Both the position numbers and the translations under genes were made by a program. A stretch of DNA of 47,559 nucleotides. Source: a virus (lineage: Duplodnaviria; Caudoviricetes). The notes under the pieces are model-generated. The model did not search any database. It was not told the DNA's origin and saw only the letters and a list, made by a program, of their open reading frames with translations. The stretch lies in the IMG/VR virus record IMGVR_UViG_3300038674_000378, positions 1 to 47,559 of that record; one strand, 5' to 3'. Below, piece after piece: positions 7,766 through 28,708 of the stretch; the first letter of the stretch is position 1, and each line of letters starts with the position of its first letter.

Positions 7766-8827
7766 ATGGAAAGTGATAAAATTTTGAAATCTTGCCCTGT
7801 TTGTGGAAAGATAAAGAAGAATCTTTCTCTGCATTTTACAAAGGTCGATGATGCAGCCCATGAAAAATTTTTAGAGAGGGTGTATTTTGTTGTTGACCCT
7901 CTTCTTTCAGAAAATTATTTGTTTGAAATTATATCTCTAATAGAGGAACAACACGAGGAGTTTGCTAGTGTTTGTACGGAAAGGTTTCTAGCTCTTAGAA
8001 GAGAAGCCTTGGGTATCTCCGGAAGAAAAGTAGTAGGGAAGAGAAGATTGGGGGAGTGTAACCCCGCCAAAAATACGGAAGTGCGTATAAAAATCTCGGA
8101 CGCAATTAAAGAAATGTGGAAAAGCGGCGATTACTCGGACAGAATAAACGGTATGATGGGTGTGTGTGGTTCCGATCATCCTGGTTGGAAAGATGAAAAG
8201 CATACACCTCTATACTTTGCAGAGAAGAATTACAGAGAATTTTTAGGGCATTTCCAAGATATAACACAGTGCTCTTGCTGTGGTAAGATTTGTGAAACTA
8301 ATGTTCATCACATAGATGAAAACCATGAAAACTTCTTAATTTCGAACTTGGAACCTTTGTGCATTTCTTGCCATGCTGATTTGCATTATGGAAAAAGGAA
8401 AATGCCTTATGTGACTATAGGGAAGTTTTTCCGTTTCGCGGGGGCACATTTTCTTCCCACACATCCCAGACTTTGCAAGCACTGGCACGGCCATGAATGG
8501 CGCATGGAAGTACAGATTATGAAGAGGGTTGACAAGACCACAGGTATGGTTTTGGATTTTTCTGATTTGAAGAAGGCAGTTAAATCCTGCATTGTTGATA
8601 AACTGGACCATAACATGCTAAACGATTTTTTGGTAAACCCCACGGCTGAAAATATTCTTGTGTGGTGCTGGGAACGTTTGATGTTTGATGGTCTTTTAAA
8701 GGGTATAAAGAAAATAACTTTGTGGGAAGCAGAGGATTCCTGGGCCTCTTTGGATGTGGATGGGATGCTTTCTGTTTTCCGCGGCAATATTGAAAATTAT
8801 GTAGAGAAAGAATGGTACGAAGCATGA
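7766..8827 (+). CDS. queD: HNH endonuclease domain fused to 6-carboxytetrahydropterin synthase (QueD)
   Basis: C-terminal FAGAH...CKHWHGHEW...GMVLDFSDLK...LDH...NPTAENI is QueD; the middle CSCC...VHHIDENHEN...NLEPLCISCH is HNH. Confidence 0.85.
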   Translation: MESDKILKSCPVCGKIKKNLSLHFTKVDDAAHEKFLERVYFVVDPLLSENYLFEIISLIEEQHEEFASVCTERFLALRREALGISGRKVVGKRRLGECNPAKNTEVRIKISDAIKEMWKSGDYSDRINGMMGVCGSDHPGWKDEKHTPLYFAEKNYREFLGHFQDITQCSCCGKICETNVHHIDENHENFLISNLEPLCISCHADLHYGKRKMPYVTIGKFFRFAGAHFLPTHPRLCKHWHGHEWRMEVQIMKRVDKTTGMVLDFSDLKKAVKSCIVDKLDHNMLNDFLVNPTAENILVWCWERLMFDGLLKGIKKITLWEAEDSWASLDVDGMLSVFRGNIENYVEKEWYEA

Positions 8828-9081
8828 ACTTCCAAGACTTCGATAGTGCCATAACAAGGGCAAAGGCATACAAGGTTCCGTGTGTCATTTGTAAACTTTT
8901 GAATCCAACCACACCACTGAAAAGGCGGAACCCATTCTTCATAATGAAAATCGAATCCTTTCATTCTGGTATTCTCAAAATGGCGTCTATTGAGGCTTGC
9001 ACGGTTCCTTTGGTGCCCGACGACATTTGTTGCTGGCACTCCACTTCCAAAATACAGACGGATATATTTAGGAGGCGGTAA
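8824..9081 (+). CDS. hypothetical protein
   Basis: ATGA overlap with the queD stop; ends overlapping the next ATG. Confidence 0.45.
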
Positions 9082-9605
9082 TGTGTGAATGCCCTATGTG
9101 TGAAATGGATTATGCTCCCGTAGAAGAAAAAGTTTATGCCGCAATGGGGAGTGGTAAACGTGTTATGATAATCAACAATGAAATGGGTGTGAGGTCTGAA
9201 CGTATGGAAAAAATTCTTATCGGCATGAGCGAAAGGAGGCCGGTGGAATCTGAGAGAAAATACACCGGCTATACGACGTTTGTGCGGCAAGGCCGCAAGA
9301 TAGGCCGCAATGAGCCGTGCCCCTGCGGTAGCGGCCGGAAATTCAAGAAATGTTGCCATCGCAGCGCAGGCTTTACGCTCATTGAAGTGCTGATCATCAT
9401 TGCCATCATAGGCATCCTTGCCGCCATAGCTATACCCGCCTTTATGGGTAAAGGCGGCTACAAGAATGGTGATTATTCCATGGGTATAGGTGGCATTGTC
9501 GAAACTCGTTGCATTGGCGGCTACCAGTTTGCCGTTGGTGCTCGTGGCAATCCCGAACAGATTTTGGATAATAATGGCAAGGGTATTCCTTGCGGGAGCA
9601 AATAG
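9081..9605 (+). CDS. SEC-C motif protein fused to a type IV prepilin-like C-terminal part
   Basis: [18 protein letters not shown] (SEC-C) directly followed by G|[22 protein letters not shown] (class III signal with E+5). Confidence 0.8.
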
Positions 9606-9606
9606 T

Positions 9607-10323
9607 ATGAGTTCTTATGAACTGGGATTTAGTGATGTTTTCACCTCTATCAACGGAGAAGTGTCTCCTTGTAAGCAGGGATCGATAGCCACTTTTCTCC
9701 GCCTGTCTCATGGCTGCAATTTGCAGTGTCCCTGGTGTGACACAATCGGTCACACTGAAAGAAAGTTTCGTTTGCTTGATTTCGAGGAAAACAAAATCGA
9801 AAAGGCCCTAAGTAAGATGAACGAAGGACCTATCGTCAAGAACATCACGATTACTGGTGGTGAACCCATGCTCGCCCATTATCTTATGAAGCAGCCTTTT
9901 GTTCATTTGCTGCGGAGCTTGCATGGCCTGGGTCATTCCATCGCAATAGAGACAAATGGGACATATCGATTGCCCGACGCTTTGCGATCCTTTGTCAAAG
10001 GCTTTGTAGTTGACTACAAATTTTTTCTTTTGGATATGGGGTGGAAAATAGAGAAGGCTTTTGCTGCAAGTAAGGATCTGCGCTCCGAAGATTACGTCAA
10101 ACTTGTCATTGACAAAGAACATCACATAGGACTTGCAAAACAATTTCTGTCATACTATACAAGCCTTGTCGCACCTGAACAACACCCAACATTTGCAGTT
10201 TCCATTATCAACGAAGACGGCAAACATGTTTTGGAACCTATGCGAGTCATCAAAAGCTTCGCTGATGATGGTTATAACATTTTGTTGAATGTTCAGATCC
10301 ACAAATTTCTCAAAGTACCTTAA
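9607..10323 (+). CDS. queE: 7-carboxy-7-deazaguanine synthase (radical SAM, QueE)
   Basis: FTSINGE, FLRL, CNLQCPWCDT, ITGGEP, IETNG, QIHK; lies between queD and folE. Confidence 0.88.
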   Translation: MSSYELGFSDVFTSINGEVSPCKQGSIATFLRLSHGCNLQCPWCDTIGHTERKFRLLDFEENKIEKALSKMNEGPIVKNITITGGEPMLAHYLMKQPFVHLLRSLHGLGHSIAIETNGTYRLPDALRSFVKGFVVDYKFFLLDMGWKIEKAFAASKDLRSEDYVKLVIDKEHHIGLAKQFLSYYTSLVAPEQHPTFAVSIINEDGKHVLEPMRVIKSFADDGYNILLNVQIHKFLKVP

Positions 10324-10386
10324 AAATCGTTTTTACGTCTGTTAAAATCGAACAGAAGAAAACGAAAGAGCCACAAAGGAGGGCTT

Positions 10387-11184
10387 ATGGACGTCAAGGA
10401 ACTCAAAAAGTATTCCAAGGAGCTGAACAAGCACCTGGACGGGGAGATCGGTGAAATTGATCTTACCCTGGGAGAGGAAGAACTTCTGGAAGCTTTCGTC
10501 ACGAAGCTTGCTGAGGTGCAGGATGCCAAACCCGAAGTGATCAAAGACCTGTCCGAAGGTCTGATCGACTTCTACAACGAGATGATCTCGGAAATGTTCT
10601 CCGGTGAAGAAGGAGAAGAGGGCTCGGAAGAAGGCGAAGAAGCCTACGAGGAAGCGCCCGAAGAACCCGAAGAGCAGCCCGCACCGAAGGAAAAGGCCAA
10701 GAAGCCGGGCAAGAAGGAAGAAAAGAAGCCCACCAAGAAGGAAAAGGAGCCGAAGGCTGAGAAGCCGAAGAAGGAAAAGAAAGAAAAGGCTCCGAAGGAA
10801 CCCAAGCCGCCCCGCGAGAAGAAGAGCGGCAAGAAGACCTGGCTGACCGAAGAGCACAAGACGGCCGGTGGTGAAACCCGCCAGCGTTTCGGCAAGGTCA
10901 AGGCTTTCTACAGCCACCACAAGGGTTCCGGCTCCAACTTCGGCAAAGAAGAGCAGCCGAAGGACGCTCTGGGCGCAGTGCTCGGTTCCGGCACGGCACA
11001 GATCAACGAGATCCTGCTGGGCAAGGGCGCTACCATCGCCACCATCGCTGAAAAGCTCGGCACGAAGGAAGGCCGTGTCAAGAACCACATCTACGCGCTG
11101 AAGCGTAGCGGTGTCGAGTTCGAAGTCAAGGACGGCAAGTACAAGGTTTCGAACATTCCTGAAGACTACTACAAGCAGGCGTAG
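10387..11184 (+). CDS. acidic/Lys-rich low-complexity protein with C-terminal winged HTH
   Basis: AAGGAGG SD; E-rich then K/E/P-rich linker; TIATIAEKLGTKEGRVKNHIYALKRSG resembles an HTH; strong C/G third-position bias. Confidence 0.7.
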   Translation: MDVKELKKYSKELNKHLDGEIGEIDLTLGEEELLEAFVTKLAEVQDAKPEVIKDLSEGLIDFYNEMISEMFSGEEGEEGSEEGEEAYEEAPEEPEEQPAPKEKAKKPGKKEEKKPTKKEKEPKAEKPKKEKKEKAPKEPKPPREKKSGKKTWLTEEHKTAGGETRQRFGKVKAFYSHHKGSGSNFGKEEQPKDALGAVLGSGTAQINEILLGKGATIATIAEKLGTKEGRVKNHIYALKRSGVEFEVKDGKYKVSNIPEDYYKQA

Positions 11185-11186
11185 CC

Positions 11187-11777
11187 ATGAACGAAGATTT
11201 GGACAGGGAGAAATTCCTTCGCCAAAGGGAAGTCGAAAACAGGCTTTACGTTGCGCTCAGGGACGGGTTGGGGTTGAACATGGGCGACCCCAACCTGATC
11301 GACACTCCGAAGCGTATTGCCAAGATGTGGTGCCAGGAGTTCTGTAAAAACGTTGGTATCGAATACGAATCTTACTCTGCGTTCCCGAACGATCATGGGT
11401 ATGACGAAATCATCGTATCTGACACCATTGAATTCGTGAGCATGTGCAGTCATCATTTCTTGCCGTTTTACGGTAAAGGCTGGATCGCATACATGCCCGA
11501 TAAAAAACTCGTCGGCCTTAGTAAAATGAGCAGAGTGTTACAGCACTACGCCGCAAGGCCGCAGCTTCAGGAGAATTTGTGCAAGCAGGTTATCGACAAC
11601 TTTGTCGGCCACATCGAACCGAAAGCTTGTATGGTAATTCTGAAAGCAACACACGGCTGCATTGCCTGTCGAGGTGCGAATCAGCCGAATCAGAAAATGA
11701 TCACCTCGGCTGTTTACGGCAAAGCATCTGAACTGTCTTTCAAAACGGAAGTTTTCAATTTGATCAACTTACCTTAG
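11187..11777 (+). CDS. folE: GTP cyclohydrolase I
   Basis: TPKRIAK, SMCSHHFLPFYG, GLSKMSR, RPQLQE, HGCIACRG. Confidence 0.95.
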   Translation: MNEDLDREKFLRQREVENRLYVALRDGLGLNMGDPNLIDTPKRIAKMWCQEFCKNVGIEYESYSAFPNDHGYDEIIVSDTIEFVSMCSHHFLPFYGKGWIAYMPDKKLVGLSKMSRVLQHYAARPQLQENLCKQVIDNFVGHIEPKACMVILKATHGCIACRGANQPNQKMITSAVYGKASELSFKTEVFNLINLP

Positions 11778-11789
11778 GAGGGTAATATC

Positions 11790-12308
11790 ATGGCCAAGGA
11801 AAAAAATAAGAAGGCTGCTGAAGTCGAAGAAACCGCTGTCGAACCGGAAGAGAACACGGCTGTTGCCGAAGACGATCTCGAGGGTGCCGAAGACAACGAG
11901 AACGAAGGGGTTGACGACGCCGATCTGCCCGAGTATATGAAAGTTGGGCGCGACACAGTGGACGACTTGGACGATGCCACGAAGGTCCAGTATCTTGAAG
12001 AACTGACCAAGGCAATGTTCGGGTACTCGGCGGACTTCATGAACCAGGCGGATGCGTTCGGAGCCAGAAACATCCTCATCGGTGCAGGTCGCGCCAGAAA
12101 GGCCGCCGTGATGTTCCGCAAGTGCGTCACTGCCTACAGATTGCTCTCGATCCATGTCGCACGGCTGAAGCGGGCTGAGAAGGCCGAAGCGAAGGAATCG
12201 AAAAGAACCGCAGAAGCGGAAGAAGCCAAGGCAGCGAAGACTCCGAAAAAGGCCGAAGAGAAGGCTCCTGCGGCCAAGCCTGCGGCCAAGAAACCGGCCA
12301 AGAAGTAG
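11790..12308 (+). CDS. protein with acidic N-terminus and histone H1-like K/A/P-rich C-tail
   Basis: AGGAGG SD; tail KAPAAKPAAKKPAKK. Confidence 0.7.
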   Translation: MAKEKNKKAAEVEETAVEPEENTAVAEDDLEGAEDNENEGVDDADLPEYMKVGRDTVDDLDDATKVQYLEELTKAMFGYSADFMNQADAFGARNILIGAGRARKAAVMFRKCVTAYRLLSIHVARLKRAEKAEAKESKRTAEAEEAKAAKTPKKAEEKAPAAKPAAKKPAKK

Positions 12309-12329
12309 ATCGTGGCCGCATAATTCCCG

Positions 12330-12362
12330 AAAGGCAGTTATCGAAAGGTAACTGCCTTTTCC
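12330..12362 (+). terminator. intrinsic terminator
   Basis: AAGGCAGTTA-tcGAAAgg-TAACTGCCTT followed by T-rich sequence. Confidence 0.75.
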
Positions 12363-12377
12363 TTCCATAGGTGCTAT

Positions 12378-12617
12378 ATGAGCTTATTCCCTGACGAGAT
12401 CACAGTGTATGTCATCATGAAGTACGAGGAACAAGTGCCCGGCCTTGCTGTTTCCGTACCTATTGGTGTGTTCAAAGGCAGTAAAGAAAATCTGGACACC
12501 TTCATGAAAAGGCACTACGATGATACCAAAAAGTACCACACTGTTAAAGTGCCCCATTACTGCGAAAAAGGTGAACTGTGTTGTGGTTGTAAGCTTTACG
12601 AAACAAAGGAGGTTTGA
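12378..12617 (+). CDS. hypothetical protein
   Basis: 79-aa ORF with AGGTG SD. Confidence 0.55.
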   Translation: MSLFPDEITVYVIMKYEEQVPGLAVSVPIGVFKGSKENLDTFMKRHYDDTKKYHTVKVPHYCEKGELCCGCKLYETKEV

Positions 12618-12619
12618 AC

Positions 12620-12676
12620 ATGGATAAACACATTATCTACTTTCCCCTTGAGCCGTACAAAGAACGCTATATTTGA
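12620..12676 (+). pseudogene. stranded original 5' end of the glycosyltransferase gene (MDKHIIYFPLEPYKERYI*)
   Basis: Strong AAGGAGG SD; peptide nearly identical to the N-terminus of ORF 13339 (MTKTIIHFPLEPYKERYT). Confidence 0.85.
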
Positions 12677-12724
12677 CACACATAATAAATCATGTCATAA
12701 ATGTGTCAAATATGGAGGCTTGAC

Positions 12725-13342
12725 ATGATTTGCAGAGTACCAGAATGCTACAACAAAGTATATGGTAATCAGGATGTTTGTAATAAACACTATAAGCAAC
12801 TGCTTTACCACGGAAAAATACGGGAAAGAACACAACACACGCTAAATTCTTGGGAAAGAACAGAACAAGGATATCTTTTTTCTTTGTACTTTCGGGGAGG
12901 TGGCGAAAGGCCAGAGAAATTTCTTATCGATCACGAATCTTTTGAAAAAGTTCGGTACCATAAATGGTGTTATCAAGGAAGATACGTCAAAAATAAAAAT
13001 CTGGGGTTGTTACATAGATTTCTTTTGGGTTACCCGGATGATCCCATAGATCACATAAATGGTGATTGTCTGGATTATAGAATCCAAAATTTGCGTATTT
13101 GCAGGCACAAAGATAATATACGGAATTCAAAGTTATCCAAGAACAATAAAACAGGGTTTGTTGGTGTTTGTGTATACCATTATGATAAAATGCGCTACGA
13201 AGCGTACATACATGTAGATAGGAAAAAGATTGGACTTGGAATACATGAAACTGCGGAAGAAGCCGCCAGAGCTTATAATGAAGCGGCGGTAAAGTATTTC
13301 GGAGAATTTGCGAGACTAAACAAGATACCGGAGGAACTATGA
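12725..13342 (+). mobile_element. free-standing HNH-AP2 homing endonuclease
   Basis: LHRFLL...IDHINGDCLDYRIQNLR (HNH) and AP2 domain LGIHETAEEAARAYNEAAVKYFGEFA; GGAGG SD at 12714; AT-rich relative to flanks. Confidence 0.88.
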
Positions 13343-14517
13343 CCAAGACTATTATTCATTTCCCTTTGGAACCGTATAAAGAAAGATACACGGAACAGCT
13401 TTGTGCTGATGAGGGGGGCTGGTTGTCTTCTCGTTGGAGAGAAAACGATATACCTTTCATAAATATTAAAGGTAAAATGCTTCGGGAAGACAGGTCAATA
13501 AAATCCGGGTCTGTTCTTGATGCAAACGGCAGGGGTTACTGGGCAACCACACAAATTGCTGAGTTTTTGAGAAGATATGAGAAAGGAGAATTTGATTACA
13601 ACCACTCTGTTATCTACTTCTCCGACTTCTGGCATCCCGGCATTGAAGCATTGGCCTATACGTTTCACATTACGGGTAAACGTATCCCCATGTACGCTAT
13701 GCTACATGCCCAGTCCGTGGATATTTTCGATTTCACCTATCCTATGCGAAACTGGATGCGTCACTTCGAGAAAGGCATCGGTTCGATCCTCGATGGCATT
13801 TTTGTTACTTCGAAGATTCTCAAGGATCTTTGCCTGGAAGCAGGTGTAGGCAATAACGACAACCTGTTTATTGCTGGCCTGCCGTACAACTCCAAGTGCG
13901 TCATGCTGCAATACTTCCCCGAGAAGCTGCCGGAAAAGAAACGGCAGGTCGTCTTCAGTTCTCGCCTCGACTGGGAAAAGAATCCCTTGTTCTTCTTGCA
14001 GGTGGCTGCTATGGTAAAGGAAATCGATCCTTCTATCAATTTCGTATTCACTACTTCCAGTAGCGAGATTCGTTCGAATGATCCGCAGATCAAAGCCATC
14101 TTCGACTCCGTTGCGCCTTCCCTGGTCGAAGTGCGCAAGAACCAGAGCAAGCAGGACTATTACAATACTCTGCTGGAAAGTACCGTTCAATTTAACTGTG
14201 CCTATCAAGACTTTGTGTCCTGGACTCTTCTGGAAGCTCTCACCTGTCGCTGCAACCCCGTATATCCGTTCTTCCGGTCATTCCCTGAAGTATTGCCCTA
14301 CAACTTCATGTACACGCCTGAGAACGTGGAAGACGCCGCAAGACTGATCCTTCAGAACATGGGTCCGTTCCACGAAGAACTGGTAAACATCGTGCTGGCT
14401 TTCGACAAATCCTGGCAACGTATGTACGACTTCATGAATTCCCATCGCTCTATGCACCACACAATCGCTCCTATGTACGAAGACAGCAGGATGGCCAATC
14501 TGATCAACGCCAAATAA
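13339..14517 (+). CDS. GT-B fold glycosyltransferase (GT4-like), probably DNA-modifying
   Basis: FSSRLDWEKNP, QDFVSWTLLEA, RSFPEVL motifs; inside the deazaguanine cluster. Confidence 0.75.
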   Translation: MTKTIIHFPLEPYKERYTEQLCADEGGWLSSRWRENDIPFINIKGKMLREDRSIKSGSVLDANGRGYWATTQIAEFLRRYEKGEFDYNHSVIYFSDFWHPGIEALAYTFHITGKRIPMYAMLHAQSVDIFDFTYPMRNWMRHFEKGIGSILDGIFVTSKILKDLCLEAGVGNNDNLFIAGLPYNSKCVMLQYFPEKLPEKKRQVVFSSRLDWEKNPLFFLQVAAMVKEIDPSINFVFTTSSSEIRSNDPQIKAIFDSVAPSLVEVRKNQSKQDYYNTLLESTVQFNCAYQDFVSWTLLEALTCRCNPVYPFFRSFPEVLPYNFMYTPENVEDAARLILQNMGPFHEELVNIVLAFDKSWQRMYDFMNSHRSMHHTIAPMYEDSRMANLINAK

Positions 14518-14521
14518 CCAT

Positions 14522-14541
14522 GGGGGCGAAAGCCCCCTTAT
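14522..14541 (+). terminator. GAAA-tetraloop hairpin, possible terminator
   Basis: GGGGGC-GAAA-GCCCCC followed by a short T tract. Confidence 0.5.
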
Positions 14542-14551
14542 GAGGTAACAG

Positions 14552-14755
14552 ATGAAGAGTTTTCTGATCATCGTAGCATCCATTCTGTTTACCTGTGCTA
14601 TGTATAATATCATGTCTGCCAACTACGCCAACCGTGTTGAAGCCCGATATATTCATGTCGTACCTGAAAAAACTAGCAATTCGTGTGTAGTATATAAGAT
14701 GGACGGCACAACTGTGATCGTTATTGACGACAAAGTGGGGAGGAAACTAAAATGA
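14552..14755 (+). CDS. small membrane or secreted protein
   Basis: N-terminal hydrophobic helix; GAGG SD. Confidence 0.55.
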   Translation: MKSFLIIVASILFTCAMYNIMSANYANRVEARYIHVVPEKTSNSCVVYKMDGTTVIVIDDKVGRKLK

Positions 14756-15099
14756 AAAAGTTTCTGATTTCCTTCATTTTGGGTTCTTTGGCTCTTGTAC
14801 CCGTTTATGAGATCGAGGGAGAACAAGTGAAGGTTGGTCCTAATAAGCAGGTTGAAGCGACTATTACTGTTGACAGGAACAATCGTGTTCACGGCTACGT
14901 TGAAGACAGTGATCCTACGAAGTTCTTCCCCGAAAAAAGAAAAGTAAAAGGCGAGTGGAAATCTAATGGTGTCATAGAGGTTAAGGACAAGTATGGATAC
15001 AAGTACAATCTGAAACCTACCGGAAAGAAAATGATTGGTGAAAGGAGAACTTACACGCATGATTACCGTTACCGTAGACAGAGTTCTGAGCACAAGTGA
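14752..15099 (+). CDS. secreted protein with signal peptide
   Basis: MKKFLISFILGSLALVP; GGAGG SD. Confidence 0.55.
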   Translation: MKKFLISFILGSLALVPVYEIEGEQVKVGPNKQVEATITVDRNNRVHGYVEDSDPTKFFPEKRKVKGEWKSNGVIEVKDKYGYKYNLKPTGKKMIGERRTYTHDYRYRRQSSEHK

Positions 15100-15781
15100 T
15101 CGTTTGAAGTTTGAGAAGACAATTCGTGAAATCCTGTGTAATGACTCCTTATACTTCGAGTATGGTTCAGGGGCAACAAAGGAAGTCACAATGGCTTGCC
15201 CCCTTATAGGGTCTGATCTAAATTTTGAAAGCACACCTGTGCGGTTTAACATGCCCGAAAATGGTCCTTTCAATGTCAAGTTTACCCAGCAAGATGCGGC
15301 ACAGTTTGATTTGGTAGTGGAAAATTTCATCAAACGCAAGACAGAGAAAAAGGAGGAAAAGCCTATGAAAACAGCATCGATTCTTCACGTTGCAGTAACG
15401 GTTGCAGGCGCACACAAGTACCCTGAGAGCACCCGAGCCTATTTGAGAGCCCTGCATCGCCACGACTTCAAAATCTCGGTTAACATTGGGGTAACTGATC
15501 TCAATCGCCAGTACGAATTTTACGATGTGCAGGAAGGCTTGATCGCAGCCCTGGACAGTCTGTTCGTGAAAATCGACAAACACACCTACAACTTCGGTAC
15601 TCGTTCGTGTGAACACATCGCCCATGAACTTTTTCCTGTTCTCAGCAAGAAGTATCCCATTGTCACTTCTGTGGCTGTGTTCGAAGATGAGAACAACGGC
15701 GCAACGGTTCTTCTCGATGAACCCATGAGAGAGCTTACCAAGCTGCGTTTCGGGCACGGCGGTGTCGTGTCGGGGTTGTGA
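15059..15781 (+). CDS. QueD-like T-fold protein (DpdL-like putative CDG decarboxylase), in frame with an upstream unknown domain; likely internal start at 15365
   Basis: GAHKYP...LHRHDF...RQYEF...SCEHIA...VFEDENNGA pattern of phage QueD-like paralogs; AAGGAGG before ATG 15365. Confidence 0.65.
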   Translation: MITVTVDRVLSTSDRLKFEKTIREILCNDSLYFEYGSGATKEVTMACPLIGSDLNFESTPVRFNMPENGPFNVKFTQQDAAQFDLVVENFIKRKTEKKEEKPMKTASILHVAVTVAGAHKYPESTRAYLRALHRHDFKISVNIGVTDLNRQYEFYDVQEGLIAALDSLFVKIDKHTYNFGTRSCEHIAHELFPVLSKKYPIVTSVAVFEDENNGATVLLDEPMRELTKLRFGHGGVVSGL

Positions 15782-16049
15782 TATGGAAGAGAAAGATCCT
15801 GAAGTTCCTAGCATCTGTACGAACTGTCAACGGCATTTAAAGGCATGGGCGGAATCTCGCCGCCCTGCCTGGAAAGGATGCAATCTTCTACTTGACGAAC
15901 ACTCCGGTGTTGATGATCCGGAAAAAACAGGTAATGACATTTTCTGCGAAGAAATGGCAATGGGTTGGGTAACAAACGGCGGTATGGCCTTTAACTATCA
16001 AATTCTTAATAAAGGGACTACGAAATGCCGGTACTTCCAGCAGAAGTAA
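15762..16049 (+). CDS. Cys-rich hypothetical protein
   Basis: Fills the gap between the DpdL-like and DpdA-like genes; start may be ATG 15783. Confidence 0.5.
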   Translation: MSCRGCDMEEKDPEVPSICTNCQRHLKAWAESRRPAWKGCNLLLDEHSGVDDPEKTGNDIFCEEMAMGWVTNGGMAFNYQILNKGTTKCRYFQQK

Positions 16050-17011
16050 AGCCTGAATTCTCCTTAATGGTGGACTCAGGGGCTCACGCTATTTTTGAGG
16101 GTTTTGTTCGTTGTGGCACAGGCATCTGGGATAGGCATTTGTGGAATTGGTCCTATTACGGTTCAGAACCTTTTTGGCAGTACGTCGATGATTACGCAGA
16201 ATTTTTAAAGGTGTATAAGGACATCTTTAATGTTTACGTCACCCTCGACGCCATTTACGATCCCAAGACTTCCTACGAAACGTTCATATACCTCAGAGAA
16301 AAGCACGGCTTGAACCCTCTGCCTGTTTTTCATTATGCTGAGAATATCGAGTGGTTGAAGAAATACATGGAAGTCACTGACTACATAGGTATTTCTGGCC
16401 TTGGTCAAGGCATCAACAAAAAGGATTACATTCAGTGGGCTGATCGTGTATTTAGTCTTGTGTGCTCCGGTAAAGATCATCTGCCGAAGTACAAGATTCA
16501 CGGCTTTGCTCTCACTTCCACGGAGCTTATTCACCGTTGGCCGTGGTATAGTGTTGATAGTTCTTCGTGGGTTCAATTCTCCCAATACGGGAAGGTGATC
16601 ATCCCCAAGATGATCGGCAACAAGCGTTCTTACAAGGTAAAACCCTATGAAGTTTTTGTATCCACTCGAAGCCCTGCTATCGGAAAGGACGATGAACACT
16701 TTGAAACTCTTTCAAAGATGGAGCAAGGCTATATCCTCGATTATCTGGCGTCGTTGAATATCGCCTACGGCAAATCTCATTTCAAGATTGTCGATGCGGA
16801 TTACGAGTGTGCAGAGCATGAAAAGCCGTGGGGAAAAGCGGAGAACGGCAAAAAGAAAATAGAAGTCATCGAAGAGTTCGGTGTATCCAATCGCCATGAA
16901 TATCGTGACATGGTAAACTATCAGTTTTACGTGGATTTGGAACGTTCTGTTCCGCCCTGGCCCTGGCCGTGGAAACGTGCAACGAACAGATTCGGTCTTA
17001 TCAAAGCCTAG
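16025..17011 (+). CDS. dpdA: DpdA-like DNA 7-deazaguanine transglycosylase (TGT fold)
   Basis: MVDSGA, YVTLDAI, PLPVFH, YIGISG, KIHGFA, PWYSVDSSSW motifs; clustered with folE/queD/queE. Confidence 0.82.
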   Translation: MPVLPAEVKPEFSLMVDSGAHAIFEGFVRCGTGIWDRHLWNWSYYGSEPFWQYVDDYAEFLKVYKDIFNVYVTLDAIYDPKTSYETFIYLREKHGLNPLPVFHYAENIEWLKKYMEVTDYIGISGLGQGINKKDYIQWADRVFSLVCSGKDHLPKYKIHGFALTSTELIHRWPWYSVDSSSWVQFSQYGKVIIPKMIGNKRSYKVKPYEVFVSTRSPAIGKDDEHFETLSKMEQGYILDYLASLNIAYGKSHFKIVDADYECAEHEKPWGKAENGKKKIEVIEEFGVSNRHEYRDMVNYQFYVDLERSVPPWPWPWKRATNRFGLIKA

Positions 17012-23207: not shown

Positions 23208-23490
23208 CACACACCATTCCAAAGTTCGTGTCTGGTATGAAACCAAGAAACGTCCACCGCTTATGGAAGACTTCGCCAGAGAAGAGGATATAGCCGAAGA
23301 GAAAGCAAGAGGAACTGTTATAGGGTTATCTGTACCTGTAGAGATAGCCTACATCGATACACCGGAAGGATTGTTTCACACAGCAGAGCTTTATATTCCT
23401 TTCGAAGGTAAGATCAAATGGTACATGAGCTATGCTGGTGATCCCAGAAAGGAAGTAGGTGAACCCAAGTACTGGAGGAAAAAGAAGTGA
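23200..23490 (+). CDS. hypothetical protein
   Basis: Fills the gap before the polymerase and overlaps its GTG start. Confidence 0.5.
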   Translation: MTSTHHSKVRVWYETKKRPPLMEDFAREEDIAEEKARGTVIGLSVPVEIAYIDTPEGLFHTAELYIPFEGKIKWYMSYAGDPRKEVGEPKYWRKKK

Positions 23491-26096
23491 GGAAGCTAGG
23501 TTTTGTCGATCCGTACAAATCGAAGTGTCTTGTTTGTGGGCTGAACAAGAAATGCACTAATGGACAGTTCACTGCCGAAGGTTTAGGCAGTGCTGGCATT
23601 ATGGTTGTTTTGGAGTGCCCGACAAATGCCGAAACAGCTTCCGGTCAAGGACTTCAAGGCAAAGTCTATGATTTTCTGTACGAGCAGTTCCGCAAACTAG
23701 GTTTGAATTTTCAAAAAGACTGTGTGCGTGTTCACGCAGTACGTTGCCGCAAGCCCTTCAAGAAAGGTCAGGCCGACTACAAAGAGCAAGAGGTTGTTTC
23801 GTGCTATCCCTACTTGCTTGGCCAGATAGAGAAGCTGAAGCCAAAAGCTATCTTGACGTTCGGTTCTACAGCCCTCAAGGGCATTCTGAGCAAAGAATTC
23901 ACAGACACTTCAATAGGCAGATGGCACGGCTTGCCGTTGCAGTACACGACCGAGAAAGGCCACCGTTGCTGGTTGATGGCTACTTTCAGTCCTAATACCA
24001 GCGCAGAAAACAAAGGCGACGACATTTACAAGCCTGTCATTGAAAAAGAAATCAGAGACTTCGGTAAGTTGTTGAGGAAGCCTTTGCCGCCTGTCAGGCG
24101 TCCCAACGTAATCCACCTGATGAATGACGAGGAAATAACTGAGTATCTGAAAAAGATGCGCAAGGCGTTATTCCTCAGCATAGACTACGAAACCACAGGC
24201 AAGAAGCCTGATCATCCTGACCATCGTATTGCCACAGTAAGCATTACAGCGGTTTACAAACAGATTTCCGATGATCCCTATGATGATGACGATGCAGAAA
24301 CCGTATCGTTCCCCTTGTCGTACAAGGGTGTCTTCGATGAAGATCAGCAGGCAGACATCGCAGAAGCTTTGGTCTACGCCTTGGAAGGCAAGGGTCTTAT
24401 CATAGCTCATAACCATAAGTACGAGCAGCGTTGGACTTCGGCTATATTAGGTTACGATATGCCGAAGAATCGTTCCTATTGTACTATGGTAACTGCGCAC
24501 CTGATGGACGAACGCAAAAAATTCTGTAGCCTCAAGTTCCAGGCTTATGTCCATTTTGGCCTACCTGATTACAGCAAGAGCATTAAACAGTATCTCGAAA
24601 CGCCGGAGGACTCTAGTGGAAATGCTTTCAATAGAGTTGATGAAGCTCCTCTTCCCGAACTTCTTGAATACAATGGTTACGATACTTATTATACATACCT
24701 GCTTTACAAAATCCAGCAACGCTACAGAAGAGAAACTAAACATCTGGATAAAGGCGTACTTGATCTTTTTACTCGTGGTAGTGTGGCACTAGGCCGCGCT
24801 GAAGGTGAAGGGTTTAATACTGTAGAAAACTACTTCAGCGATAATACCAAGAAGATTCGAAAGGAAATTTCGGACCTCAAAGCAGAGCTTCTTGGTATGC
24901 GTGAATCGATCCTATTCAAAAAGAAGATGGGTCGTAACTTTGAGTTCGGCAAAGACGCCGATCTTGATACCATGCTCTACGATATTATCGGCGTGGAGAT
25001 GGATAAGAAGACTGACAGTGGAAACAGAGCGAAAGACGCCGAAGTAATGCTGTCCATGAAGCACCCCTGGCCTACGAAGTACATGGAAATTGCGAAACGT
25101 GAAAAAGTAGAATCCACGTACTTCGGTCAGATTACAAGGGAGACATACGATAATGTCCTTCACACAGTTTACAACCTTCACACCACAAGGACTGGACGAT
25201 CTAGTTCGACAAGTCCTAACTGGCAGAACCTCCCCAAGCGCGATGAGATGGCTAAGAATTATGTCAGAAGAGGAATATGTGCGGCTCCTGGCCAGCACTT
25301 ATTCGAAGCCGATTATGGCTCACTTGAGGTCAGGATCGCAGCCTGCTATACGAAGGACCCGAAGCTCATCAACTACATTCTTGATCCCACAACCGACATG
25401 CACAGGGACTCAGCGTTAGAAATATTCAGTATCAAGGCAAAAGAATTCGCAACCCTTGATAAGAAGTTCGCCAAGATGATACGATTTCATGCAAAGAATG
25501 GCTTTGTTTTCGCAAACTTCTATGGCTCTTCTTTCAAATCATGCGCCAAAACCTTGTGGAAAGTAGCTCCTGATCTTCATGTTACGAAAGACATGACGAT
25601 GATGGATCATCTGAACTATCAAGGTTTTCGTGAGTATGACGAGTATGAAGAGCACATCAAGGATGTTGTTAATAAATTCTGGAAAAAGTTTTCTGTGTTC
25701 AAGAAATGGCAGAATGACAATATGGAGTTCTACAAAAAGAATCTCTATATCGAGAACTACTTAGGTTTTCGTCGTCACGGCCCGCTGACTCGTAACGAGA
25801 TCGGTAACACAGCCATTCAGGGTTCTGCTTTCATGTGTCTGTTATGGTCATTCAATAGGGTTGACGACATTCAGCATGAAGAGGGTTGGGAATCAAAACT
25901 TCGTGGCCAGATTCATGACTCTATTGTCGGTAATGTCACTCCCAAAGAAAAAGATCATGTCCTGAAGACCATCAAGCGCGTGATGGAAGAAGAACTGCGC
26001 AAACAATTCCCGTGGGTAATCGTGCCCATGGTGGCTGAATTCGAAATGGCTCCCCTTGGTGGGACTTGGGCCGACTTGGAGAGCATCGAGGTGTAA
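23487..26096 (+). CDS. polA: family A DNA polymerase with N-terminal uracil-DNA-glycosylase-like domain (SPO1-type) and 3'-5' exonuclease
   Basis: UDG4-like CxxCxLxxxC...VLECP...C...ILTFG; exonuclease IDYETTG, HNHKYE, YNGYD; TGRSSS.PNWQN, motif A ADYGSLEVR, motif B R..AK..F..FYG, motif C QIHDSI. Confidence 0.93.
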   Translation: MRKLGFVDPYKSKCLVCGLNKKCTNGQFTAEGLGSAGIMVVLECPTNAETASGQGLQGKVYDFLYEQFRKLGLNFQKDCVRVHAVRCRKPFKKGQADYKEQEVVSCYPYLLGQIEKLKPKAILTFGSTALKGILSKEFTDTSIGRWHGLPLQYTTEKGHRCWLMATFSPNTSAENKGDDIYKPVIEKEIRDFGKLLRKPLPPVRRPNVIHLMNDEEITEYLKKMRKALFLSIDYETTGKKPDHPDHRIATVSITAVYKQISDDPYDDDDAETVSFPLSYKGVFDEDQQADIAEALVYALEGKGLIIAHNHKYEQRWTSAILGYDMPKNRSYCTMVTAHLMDERKKFCSLKFQAYVHFGLPDYSKSIKQYLETPEDSSGNAFNRVDEAPLPELLEYNGYDTYYTYLLYKIQQRYRRETKHLDKGVLDLFTRGSVALGRAEGEGFNTVENYFSDNTKKIRKEISDLKAELLGMRESILFKKKMGRNFEFGKDADLDTMLYDIIGVEMDKKTDSGNRAKDAEVMLSMKHPWPTKYMEIAKREKVESTYFGQITRETYDNVLHTVYNLHTTRTGRSSSTSPNWQNLPKRDEMAKNYVRRGICAAPGQHLFEADYGSLEVRIAACYTKDPKLINYILDPTTDMHRDSALEIFSIKAKEFATLDKKFAKMIRFHAKNGFVFANFYGSSFKSCAKTLWKVAPDLHVTKDMTMMDHLNYQGFREYDEYEEHIKDVVNKFWKKFSVFKKWQNDNMEFYKKNLYIENYLGFRRHGPLTRNEIGNTAIQGSAFMCLLWSFNRVDDIQHEEGWESKLRGQIHDSIVGNVTPKEKDHVLKTIKRVMEEELRKQFPWVIVPMVAEFEMAPLGGTWADLESIEV

Positions 26097-26171: not shown

Positions 26172-26600
26172 ATGATTTTTCCTATGGAAAGTTTCAGAAA
26201 GAAGCCGTACATTCATGGTGTCACTACCATGGAGGAGTTCTTCGAAGATCAGCATAATAGGCGCAGATTCCTTCGCAAGTACAGCCCTAAGGTATTCCCC
26301 AGGCTGAAAAAATGCAAGAACGAAAGTTGTGAGAATTATCACGACAACAAGGATTCTTACTGTAGTTTCGAGTGTCGTGTGTACTGGGAAACTACCATGC
26401 GTGTACAACGATTCGGAGGAGTTGATGTACTGAACAACAACCGCAGATGCTCTACCTGTTTGTACGGGTACGAACACAAGTCCAAGATTAAGGCTTTCAA
26501 GTACCACTGTGTTGAAGAACTTGCTTCTGAACATGGAATGAAAGAAGTTTTAGTCAACCCTGATCATTGGTGCCACTTTTACAAGGAGAAACATTCATGA
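26172..26600 (+). CDS. Cys-rich hypothetical protein
   Basis: C..C...YCSFEC, CSTC, WCHFY. Confidence 0.5.
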   Translation: MIFPMESFRKKPYIHGVTTMEEFFEDQHNRRRFLRKYSPKVFPRLKKCKNESCENYHDNKDSYCSFECRVYWETTMRVQRFGGVDVLNNNRRCSTCLYGYEHKSKIKAFKYHCVEELASEHGMKEVLVNPDHWCHFYKEKHS

Positions 26601-28708
26601 GCCGTAGTCTTTACAATACCTACAGGCCCGTAAACTTCGATGAAGTTATCGGAAACGAATCCACAGTTCAAAGCCTTCAGAAGATGTTTGAGCGTGAAGA
26701 AGGCATCCCGAATGCTATCCTGCTTCATGGGCCTAGCGGGACAGGCAAAACTACGGTTGCTCGTATCATCAAGAACCTGCTAGAAATAGCTGATCAAGAC
26801 TACAAAGAGCTTGATCTGGCCTCGACTCGTGGTATCGACAACATTCGTGATCTCCGCGAGAAATGCAAGTACAAACCGCTGCGTTCTAAGTACAGAATGT
26901 ACCTTATGGATGAGTGCTTTGCGGCAGGTACCCAGATAGAAACACCTAACGGTGCGAAAGCTATTGAATCGTTTGTAGCGGGTGATTCTGTCTATTCCAG
27001 CAACGGCGTAGATATTGTTACTAACACTTTTGTAAAAGAAATTCCACTGGATAGGCTTATTCGTGTAGAAATGGAGAATGGAAAAACATTGTTCTGTTCT
27101 GATAAACACGAGGTCTTTACAGAAAAAGGATGGAAGAATTCAGAAGATTTGGTAACCGGGGACTTGCTTTTGCCTTTCTGTTGTGATTTAGTGTCAAGCA
27201 CTAATCAAGAAAACAGGGAGAAAAACAATGGCATACACAAAAAATCCACGAATGAAACCCTGCGCTGTTTGCGGAAAACTGATGAGGGCTTATCGCAACG
27301 GGGCAGAAAGAGACTTTTGCAGCCGGAAATGCAGCGACAGAGCAAGAGAGAAGCCGCGGATAATGGTTCCGTGCGGATGGTGCGAGGAGGTCTGTATCGA
27401 GATTGTTCCGGGGAGAAGGGCACAGTCTTACACATGCAGCAAATCCTGTGCAGCCCAATTCAGGGACTTTCTTCTGGAAGGAAAGAAAAACCACACAGAC
27501 GAAGCACGAAAAGTTATGTCGGAAAGTCGGAAAGCCTTCAACAAAACACCGGCAGGATTAAGAGCAGCGAAACTTTCCTCAGAAAGGATGTTACGAAAGA
27601 ACCCGTCCAAAGACCCGCTTGTGGTAGAAAAAATAAAAGAAACGAAAAGGCTGAATGGGACTTTAAATGTTTGGCCGGGAAAACGCGGGGGCAACGGGCA
27701 ATTAACCACACCACAAAAACTGCTGGCAGTAATTCTGGGAAGTTCGTGGGTAACGGAATACAACATATCATTGGGTCCTCGAAAAGATGGGTACCCAACA
27801 AACTACAAGGTGGATATAGCTCATCCGAAGCTAAAAATAGCTGTGGAAGTAGACGGGAACAGCCACAAACACCCGAACAGTATAGAAAAAGATTTGAAGA
27901 AAACAAGGAAACTTCAAGAATTAGGGTGGCGAGTGTTGCGCGTTACGAACGAGGAAATAATGACCAACTCTTTTCAAGCGTTGTCAAAGGTAAAGAAGTT
28001 CGTCAAGGATTCATAAATCTTTATGATCTTGAAGTGAAGTCTATACCGAACTACTTTGCTAATGGTGTATTGGTACACAACTGTCACCAAGTAACAGCAC
28101 AGGCGCAGGAAGCCATGCTGAAATGGCTTGAAGATTGCCCGAAACACGTAATCATCGTATTGGCCACTACAGACCCCCAGAAACTCATAAAAACGATACT
28201 TACCCGTTGCAACAAGTTTCAGTTGAACTTACTCAGCCGCGAAGAAATGCGCGTGCTGATCGAATGGGTGCTTGATAACGAAGACATTCAGTTACCCAAG
28301 AAAGTTGTTTCGGAAATCATCGTCAAATCGGAAGGCAGCCCCCGAAATGCGCTTACGCTCTTGGATAACGTTATTGAGATTGAGGATGAAGATACTGCGC
28401 TGGAAATACTGGCGGGAGACACAGGAGAAGGCTCTAAGGAGACTATTGATCTGTGCCGTCTGCTTATGGATAGCCGTGCAACTTGGAAGCAGTATCAATC
28501 TCTCTTGGCCGCGATAAAGGATGAGCCCGAGACCGTTCGTTATTCTGTTCTCGGGTTCTGCAATTCCGTAGCTCTGAGAGAAAAAGACGAAAAGAAAATC
28601 AAAAGGGCCGTAGCAGTTATGGAATGCTTTTCGAAGAATTACTATGATTCCAAGAAAGCAGGTCTGACGTATAGCTGCTTTGAGGCTTATTACGGTATTG
28701 ACGTATGA
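26597..28708 (+). CDS. dnaX: DNA polymerase III gamma/tau-like clamp loader, intein-containing
   Basis: YRPVNFDEVIG, GPSGTGKTT, Walker B LMDE|CH split by the intein, LATTDPQK, TRC, GSPRNA. Confidence 0.92.
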   Translation: MSRSLYNTYRPVNFDEVIGNESTVQSLQKMFEREEGIPNAILLHGPSGTGKTTVARIIKNLLEIADQDYKELDLASTRGIDNIRDLREKCKYKPLRSKYRMYLMDECFAAGTQIETPNGAKAIESFVAGDSVYSSNGVDIVTNTFVKEIPLDRLIRVEMENGKTLFCSDKHEVFTEKGWKNSEDLVTGDLLLPFCCDLVSSTNQENREKNNGIHKKSTNETLRCLRKTDEGLSQRGRKRLLQPEMQRQSKREAADNGSVRMVRGGLYRDCSGEKGTVLHMQQILCSPIQGLSSGRKEKPHRRSTKSYVGKSESLQQNTGRIKSSETFLRKDVTKEPVQRPACGRKNKRNEKAEWDFKCLAGKTRGQRAINHTTKTAGSNSGKFVGNGIQHIIGSSKRWVPNKLQGGYSSSEAKNSCGSRREQPQTPEQYRKRFEENKETSRIRVASVARYERGNNDQLFSSVVKGKEVRQGFINLYDLEVKSIPNYFANGVLVHNCHQVTAQAQEAMLKWLEDCPKHVIIVLATTDPQKLIKTILTRCNKFQLNLLSREEMRVLIEWVLDNEDIQLPKKVVSEIIVKSEGSPRNALTLLDNVIEIEDEDTALEILAGDTGEGSKETIDLCRLLMDSRATWKQYQSLLAAIKDEPETVRYSVLGFCNSVALREKDEKKIKRAVAVMECFSKNYYDSKKAGLTYSCFEAYYGIDV
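26915..28081 (+). mobile_element. intein (389 aa) inserted in the DnaX Walker B motif
   Basis: Begins CFAAGTQIETPNG; block B CSDKHEV; ends YDLEV...NYFANGVLVHN followed by Cys+1. Confidence 0.93.
27228..28016 (+). CDS. Vsr/DUF559-type PD-(D/E)xK endonuclease nested in the +1 frame inside the intein
   Basis: Own GGAG SD; Zn-finger repeats CAVC/FCSRKC/CGWC/TCSKSC; YKVDIA...AVEVDGNSH...D..K...LQELGWRVLRVTNEEI. Confidence 0.88.
   Translation: MAYTKNPRMKPCAVCGKLMRAYRNGAERDFCSRKCSDRAREKPRIMVPCGWCEEVCIEIVPGRRAQSYTCSKSCAAQFRDFLLEGKKNHTDEARKVMSESRKAFNKTPAGLRAAKLSSERMLRKNPSKDPLVVEKIKETKRLNGTLNVWPGKRGGNGQLTTPQKLLAVILGSSWVTEYNISLGPRKDGYPTNYKVDIAHPKLKIAVEVDGNSHKHPNSIEKDLKKTRKLQELGWRVLRVTNEEIMTNSFQALSKVKKFVKDS

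Follow-up and report, generated by a model that had tools for sequence, protein, structure and literature searches.

A Vsr/DUF559-type nuclease gene nested in the +1 frame of a contiguous phage DnaX intein, with a 3' segment conserved in both frames

We describe an intein in the clamp-loader gene dnaX of a tailed phage (Duplodnaviria; Caudoviricetes) whose DNA also holds a nuclease gene in another reading frame. The locus lies on the plus strand of IMG/VR virus record IMGVR_UViG_3300038674_000378, which was analyzed over positions 1 to 47,559 (hereafter, the window). DnaX is encoded by one open reading frame (ORF) of 703 amino acids (aa; 26597-28708; TIGR02397, E 7e-56 over the entire ORF). 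It consists of an N-extein (26597..26914) that ends with the Walker-B Asp-Glu; a stop-free, contiguous intein of 389 aa (26915..28081; PF14890, E 8.6e-13) that runs from Cys1 to His388-Asn389; and a C-extein (28082..28708) whose first residue is the +1 Cys nucleophile. The block-B His65 completes the residue set of a class-1 contiguous intein; it is present in at least 90% of 73 aligned inteins and lies in the N-terminal splicing region (approximately residues 1-90; 26915..27184), where pLDDT (predicted local distance difference test score) is 95-98. The intact splicing ends reported in the initial annotation of this DNA are thus confirmed. Since the host gene is one 703-aa ORF rather than two, the locus does not belong to the fractured genes with split inteins (Dassa 2009).

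An AlphaFold model (73 sequences) places intein residues 1-90 and 331-389 at pLDDT 83-98 and matches Hint domains across 122-142 residues, including 2LWY (Z 19.4; root-mean-square deviation 1.3; 125 residues aligned). Residues 111-330 are mostly at pLDDT 39-55 and are predicted to be disordered. A domain search found no nuclease family in the intein's own frame and, therefore, no canonical in-frame endonuclease. Both results agree with the earlier suggestion that the central part of the intein is an off-frame translation.

The DNA beneath this central part encodes, in the +1 frame, a 262-aa product (27228..28016) that, from its domain match and structural model (mean pLDDT 91), carries two CxxC/CxxxC Zn-finger-like (Cys4) repeats, a helical linker, and a Vsr/DUF559-type nuclease domain. 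The frame is open from 27192 and closes with a TAA stop at 28014-28016; a Shine-Dalgarno (SD)-like GGAG (27217..27220) stands 7 nt 5' of the nested ATG (27228). Matches are to DUF559 (E 1.3e-11) and, weakly, to zf-FCS (E 0.007). Together with the GGAG and ATG, these features bear out the earlier description of a separate Zn-finger and Vsr/DUF559 nuclease gene, and the sequence confirms that both frames stay stop-free over 789 nt; the third frame contains 22 stops.

The top Foldseek rows for the nuclease model, none of which falls below E 0.001, are 3R3P (I-Bth0305I; E 0.003, TM-score 0.69 by target) and Vsr 1CW0 (E 0.015), and through them the protein has the Vsr-like catalytic fold of EDxHD homing endonucleases. 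By sequence, it is nearer to the DUF559 protein 3HRL (E 1.9e-13) than to 3R3P (E 2.5e-4). Six residues, E177 and the putative catalytic D196, E207, D209, H213, and D222, are invariant among 71 nuclease sequences. Three of these, D196, H213, and D222, are spaced as in the I-Bth0305I active site; D222 aligns directly and H213 is off by one place. The first Glu of the EDxHD set falls outside every alignment, with Gln163 or Glu177 as candidates. In 40 of 71 loci, the first ATG follows an SD of at least 4 nt, compared to 86 of 447 internal ATGs. A scan for an internal promoter upstream of the nested gene found none (1 site versus 2.2 expected), and codon-usage scores fail to separate the frames (-0.09 for the nuclease, -0.11 for the intein, and -0.13 for the third frame).

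Profile searches, limited each time to the 80 best matches (of 168 and of 158 in viruses and of 323 in genomes), place this arrangement in a large family. Searching with the nuclease had at first given 13 viral loci: the layout was complete in 9, and the other 4 were mini-inteins. The wider set comprises 76 distinct viral loci, window included: 71 fully nested, 2 mini-inteins, 1 with an intein-frame TAG (L049), 1 in frame (L167), and 1 free-standing (L171). Among 79 distinct genome loci, 68 are nested in the +1 frame, 2 have only the C-terminal intein part recognized, and 9 lack an intein (free-standing genes that are close relatives in 5 cases, and distant DUF559 genes in 4). Pooling gives 152 distinct relatives, and 141 of them share this nested +1 register, which answers the proposal, made with the initial annotation, to look for other inteins with nested alternative-frame nucleases. 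Host proteins include DnaX, DEAD/ResIII, SNF2, UvrD, and methylase-helicase (3 of 13 scanned had no Pfam match), and the insertion site is nearly always DE|C or DE|S of Walker-B. Matches also occur in 40 cultured-phage records; the nested ORF is present in all five that were examined (Vibrio 1.088.O, CP-T1, 159E43-1b, Pseudomonas MR14, and Corynebacterium phi673) and is annotated in none. An apparent invariance of TNEEIMTN was dropped as search-pattern bias, and a repeat search minus the 3' segment gave mostly the same loci.

The two frames are under different constraints. With the nuclease protein held fixed and its synonymous codons redrawn 300 times per locus, 20.1 intein-frame stops are expected per locus (21.3 for the window). 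None is seen in the 71 loci tested, which were chosen out of 76 for an open host frame, and stop-free redraws numbered 0 of 300 for the window and none for any of the 71. In the catalytic E-V/I-D (EVD) motif, a codon ending in T would put a TGA into the intein frame, and 0 of 135 loci use it. Conservation of the intein frame above the by-product null is 0.006-0.024 over nuclease residues 1-231, 0.24 over residues 232-241, and 0.10-0.12 over residues 242-262.

Substitutions point the same way. In a Vibrio phage pair, the overlap core shows 3 non-synonymous and 29 synonymous differences in the nuclease frame versus 27 and 5 in the intein frame. In all 9 further close pairs, the non-synonymous proportion (pN) of the nuclease frame is below its synonymous proportion (pS); in the intein frame, pN exceeds pS in 8 of the 9. 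The frame-by-frame dN/dS comparison put forward with the initial annotation was thus run on relatives, the window having no diverged close copy, and it reveals purifying selection in the nuclease frame and relaxation in the intein frame. Because conservation of the intein frame is at by-product level and substitutions are frame-specific, most of the 789 nt is best described as a nuclease gene under a no-stop constraint. To judge from these comparisons, over nuclease residues 1-231 the intein frame need only stay stop-free; the corresponding passenger region (27227..27919) is stop-free, predicted to be disordered, and lacks independent sequence conservation. Dual sequence selection is limited to approximately the last 31 nuclease codons (27920..28016), which are conserved in both frames. 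The long dual-coding overlap proposed earlier therefore stands as 789 nt open in both frames but not as sequence-level dual selection over the full length, while the idea that both frames are functional near 27920-28016 gains support from two-frame conservation and the predicted fold.

Within this segment, positions 27920-27950 encode the GWxVLR strand of the nuclease, its last (residues 235-240 in the model), and, read at -1, intein strand 336-343, which is predicted to be the penultimate strand of the Hint domain and lies within the block modeled at pLDDT 83-98. The alignment to 2LWY covers 125 residues, compared to approximately 115 available from residues 1-90 and 365-389 (our own count, as the alignment output gave ranges only), so part of 331-364 must belong to the core. 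A PDB sequence search with the mini-intein left the shared strand unaligned, and the point therefore rests on the predicted model. The GWxVLR motif also occurs in DUF559 proteins outside inteins (3HRL), from which we infer that the nuclease frame is likely older and that the intein strand is the overprint.

The -1 reading is the sole candidate strand in 137 of 141 nested loci and is followed by a loop of variable length; the other 4 (L193, L206, L207, and L232) have an ordinary intein strand of their own further down, near or after the nuclease stop. An alternating hydrophobic, strand-like pattern is present in 123 of 135 shared-strand loci, mini-inteins excluded, versus 51 +/- 5.5 under the null, and in 1 of 4 own-strand and 0 of 1 in-frame control loci. 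Two mini-inteins, L010 and L013, have deleted the nuclease and retained its last 76 codons. The approximately unbiased test rejected (p-AU 5e-54) a topology that unites the outgroup with the free-standing, in-frame, and own-strand forms; the free-standing relatives are thus not shown to be ancestral.

Comparisons between alleles indicate horizontal spread. A single contig from run X2 (study P2) differs from the window at 56 positions over 1463 nt, and among the differences listed only 27730 falls inside the intein. X2 holds 0.55 of 220 sampled words, about the value for an intact intein alone (approximately 0.55), versus approximately 0.2 if differences were evenly spread; together with the listed differences, this places nearly all of them in approximately 296 extein bases (approximately 19%). 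The same run also holds an empty DE-C-H allele. Near-identical intein DNA in exteins that have diverged by this much, alongside an empty allele, fits recent homing. Likewise, identity in the Vibrio phage pair is 95-97% over the larger part of the intein, with 21 matches in its last 24 nt, versus 77-78% in the exteins.

Empty sites are common. Among 76 distinct related phage dnaX genes (from the best 80 of 553 matches, together with L254 and L255), 74 are empty, with Cys (38), Val (16), Ala (12), Ile (5), Ser (2), or Thr (1) at the +1 position; in intein-bearing viral loci, this residue is Cys or Ser in 73 of 73. The window's nearest empty relative, L254 (87% amino-acid identity), reads DE-V-H. 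In the cultured Corynebacterium glutamicum pair, the empty phi674 reads DE-V-H and the intein-bearing phi673 DE|C-H; their exteins differ at 17 of 1605 bases, three of which are the +1 codon. In the portion of the isolation paper available to us, just intein presence versus absence was noted for these phages (PMC6132909). Either homing co-converts the nucleophile codon or the Val alleles are escapes.

Could the second frame be an error? The window is a metagenomic contig with a depth of approximately 10, and one relative, the UvrD helicase intein of L167, does carry its nuclease in frame, so a pair of sequencing or assembly frameshifts might have displaced a nuclease that truly belongs to the intein frame. 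An indel check suggested in the initial annotation, run on contigs of two other studies, gave 0 gaps across the intein. The X2 contig spans the whole intein (26825-28287) with 0 gaps; run X3 covers 26667-27789 and 27809-28140, also with 0 gaps; and run X6 (study P3) contributes intein pieces of 291 and 222 nt with 0 gaps and 0 differences. Run X1, possibly the window's own source, was left out of the count, and no indel rows were found among the differences listed for contigs of other studies. The 3' overlap, moreover, cannot fit one single frame. Indel-free contigs, the family-wide register, and the cultured-phage records together refute the frameshift explanation, and we regard its probability as negligible.

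Two biological alternatives accept both frames. One is that +1 ribosomal frameshifting from the dnaX frame makes a fusion of N-extein, N-intein, and nuclease, with no start of the nuclease's own. The open +1 frame precedes the window's ATG by 36 nt and a clear SD is missing in some relatives, as this would predict, but the SD enrichment at first ATGs argues for independent initiation, and in L022, L060, L077, and L087 the open frame begins with the ATG itself, which leaves no landing stretch for a frameshift; we consider this route improbable. Alternatively, the nuclease may be a passenger or serve the phage in competitor exclusion or DNA repair, with the intein spreading by ordinary recombination. 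DUF559 proteins are widespread outside inteins, and free-standing relatives exist, of which L215 and L217 sit directly upstream of intein-less helicase genes. Intein DNA that is far more alike than the exteins between phages is, however, the pattern of homing; the best fold match (3R3P) is a proven homing endonuclease domain; and the gene keeps company with inteins across unrelated host ATPases. This alternative, too, has only a small chance of being correct.

We hold it very probable that the locus is a contiguous intein whose DNA contains an intact +1-frame Vsr/DUF559-type gene, likely its homing endonuclease, with a short 3' stretch conserved in both frames and predicted to form a beta-strand of both proteins; we are equally confident that this is a real, widespread, and most likely active homing intein. 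Under the proposed mechanism, dnaX mRNA would yield a 703-aa precursor in which the Hint domain (approximately residues 1-90 and 331-389) splices as a class-1 intein that carries a disordered passenger of approximately 240 residues and reconstitutes DE-C-H at Walker-B, as the intact motifs, fold, and purged stops suggest. From the SD and ATG, the nuclease would be translated separately by a ribosome starting at the nested site. During co-infection, it may cleave dnaX alleles that lack the intein close to their Walker-B codons, and the intein would be copied in by repair along with short flanks, the +1 Cys codon included, a transfer pattern seen between the alleles above. In origin, the nuclease gene may have entered the intein out of frame, after which the -1 reading of GWxVLRF likely replaced the intein's own penultimate strand; such a replacement would leave the nuclease and intein genes no longer cleanly separable. 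With less assurance, we favor the wider proposal that this overprinted reading was captured as a Hint core strand and so welded nuclease and intein together, and that the element, overlooked in annotation, has reached the Walker-B site in clamp loaders and in SF1/SF2/SNF2 helicases of many phyla and supplies its own +1 Cys by converting DE-V-H targets.

Several observations weigh against this interpretation. The strand-like pattern also appears in 4 of 6 free-standing relatives, unless these are decayed inteins, and so may partly persist or arise without an intein. In our trees, which were quick, with approximately 145 columns and long branches, own-strand loci fall in two places, and their basal placement is not rejected (p-AU 0.18); L206 is basal in one tree and not in the second, and, given that unrepeated placement, we claim no order of events. 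The window's SD is weak, and the best start lacks a 4-nt SD in 16 of 71 loci. RNA runs X19 and X20 hold just 0.06-0.11 of sampled words, and runs X2-X5, although labeled RNA, may be DNA. Intein identity with X2 and X3 is bounded indirectly, from listed differences and word share. The nearest empty relatives (L254 and phi674), with Val at +1, might be resistant alleles rather than targets. Finally, the phage encodes 7-deazaguanine genes, and modified DNA could block cutting by the nuclease.

That modification cluster occupies 7766-17011 of the window and includes QueD-like genes (7766-8827 and 15035-15781), a radical SAM QueE-like gene (9490-10323), FolE (11187-11777), a glycosyltransferase (13339-14517), and a tRNA-guanine transglycosylase/DpdA-like gene (16025-17011). 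A free-standing HNH endonuclease gene (12701-13342; PHROG 99, E 1e-33) lies within it. The dnaX gene itself belongs to a replication cluster with DNA polymerase A, sliding clamp, gp32-like single-stranded DNA-binding protein, RecA, 5'-3' exonuclease, and ligase; the polymerase (23487-26096) is fused to an N-terminal uracil-DNA-glycosylase-like domain.

Variants within the family are also recorded. The in-frame relative in the UvrD helicase intein (L167, 1238-4345) has no Zn fingers in its nuclease, and an ordinary intein strand comes after it. The free-standing relatives L215 (2417-3058) and L217 (1558-2202) lie directly upstream of or overlap intein-less SF2 helicase genes (DE-S-H and DE-C-H), possibly reflecting collaborative or free homing. 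In L027 and L051, the DnaX insertion site is displaced two codons onward (D-E-A-H|C). Long or intein-like host ORF stretches 5' of the nested intein suggest a second intein in the gene in L060, L071, L168, and L173. At the 5' end, conserved intein G-D-x-V-Y codons form the nested SD and ATG in seven loci (L004, L005, L007, L043, L047, L050, and L061; intein offset 253-259), so that the two genes are entangled at this end as well. In the DE|SS helicase subfamily (L072, L080, L083, L086, L088, L159, and L173; offset 115-118), the nuclease ORF apparently has its start, with an SD ahead of it, within the N-terminal splicing region; block B would then be overlapped too.

The general layout is known. 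An out-of-frame LAGLIDADG endonuclease in the cyanobacterial dnaX intein was reportedly first proposed by Gorbalenya in 1998. Out-of-frame intein endonucleases have since been published (Gosselin 2025; Phillips 2026), and the initial view of a distinct mobile-element architecture does not hold; the window, with an unbroken host frame and a nested nuclease ORF that has its own start, is an intein of this kind. The closest counterpart is a cyanobacterial dnaX intein with LAGLIDADG in an overlapping ORF, an SD, and frame-specific dN/dS (Phillips, DeSimone, and Gogarten; bioRxiv 10.64898/2026.09.14.751524). It shares with the window a DnaX host, a contiguous intein, a disordered in-frame middle, and a separate same-strand ORF with a putative SD, and with the present family purifying selection in the nuclease frame and the coexistence of full, mini, and empty alleles. 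The two differ in nuclease type (LAGLIDADG versus Zn-finger plus Vsr/DUF559) and in hosts (cyanobacterial chromosomes versus phages and many helicase hosts); the cyanobacterial ORF lies between the splicing domains with no reported shared splicing strand, whereas ours overlaps the splicing domain. The Spirulina DnaX mini-intein and the window intein are just 23% identical. Both inteins presumably occupy the same DE|CH site.

Actinobacteriophage inteins with antisense LAGLIDADG, antisense Vsr-like, or same-strand EndoVII genes are described in a second preprint (Gosselin, Arsenault, and Gogarten; bioRxiv 10.1101/2025.01.02.630785), which proposes an origin by invasion of a free-standing endonuclease gene and a later shift into frame. 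These inteins are likewise contiguous and phage-borne, and their endonucleases, Vsr-like/EDxHD ones included, occupy a different frame. Their Vsr-like ORFs are antisense and the same-strand case is EndoVII, whereas here Vsr is on the same strand; their hosts are polymerase, capsid, terminase, and thymidylate synthase rather than clamp loaders and helicases; and the layout is there called rare, with the second ORF typically outside the splicing domain, whereas here it is common and overlaps that domain.

Same-strand Vsr-like genes within inteins are also on record for split inteins, and in 15 loci the 3' end of the gene runs 6-69 bp into the start of the C-intein (Dassa 2009; PMC2677866). Those inteins are split over two genes and splice in trans, whereas the present host frame is unbroken and overlaps the nuclease gene by 789 bp. 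A lone TAG interrupts the DnaX intein frame of L049 (2761-2763), whose nested nuclease is intact; this locus may be an intermediate towards such split inteins, or the TAG an error. I-Bth0305I (Taylor et al. 2011; PMC3239194) is an EDxHD homing endonuclease that has in common with the present nuclease a Vsr-fold C-terminal domain, an N-terminal DNA-binding part, and matching D/H/D spacing; it carries NUMOD motifs and is encoded in a group I intron, versus Cys4 Zn fingers and an intein here. Of two further papers, one reports a related HNH insertion that is out of frame but involves no intein (PMC11855218), and the other files a DUF559 gene under EDxHD (PMC9403480).

In a literature search whose coverage left out preprint supplements and most subscription journals, we found no description of a same-strand Vsr/DUF559 gene nested in contiguous Walker-B inteins, of a shared splicing strand, or of the Val-to-Cys difference at +1 in near-identical empty alleles. 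The preprints call out-of-frame intein nucleases rare; the present family alone has at least 141 distinct nested loci, and many inteins whose middle looks "degenerate" may therefore be active yet carry no annotation. In the shared strand, 30 bases are under selection for two proteins at once, a compact example for which the own-strand relatives, the in-frame form, and the mini-inteins serve as natural controls. With the phi673/phi674 pair, one can ask directly whether intein homing is driven by a nuclease encoded out of frame and whether homing can bring its own +1 nucleophile. Overall, the headline layout is shared with known systems, and it is the shared strand and this cultured pair that add value.

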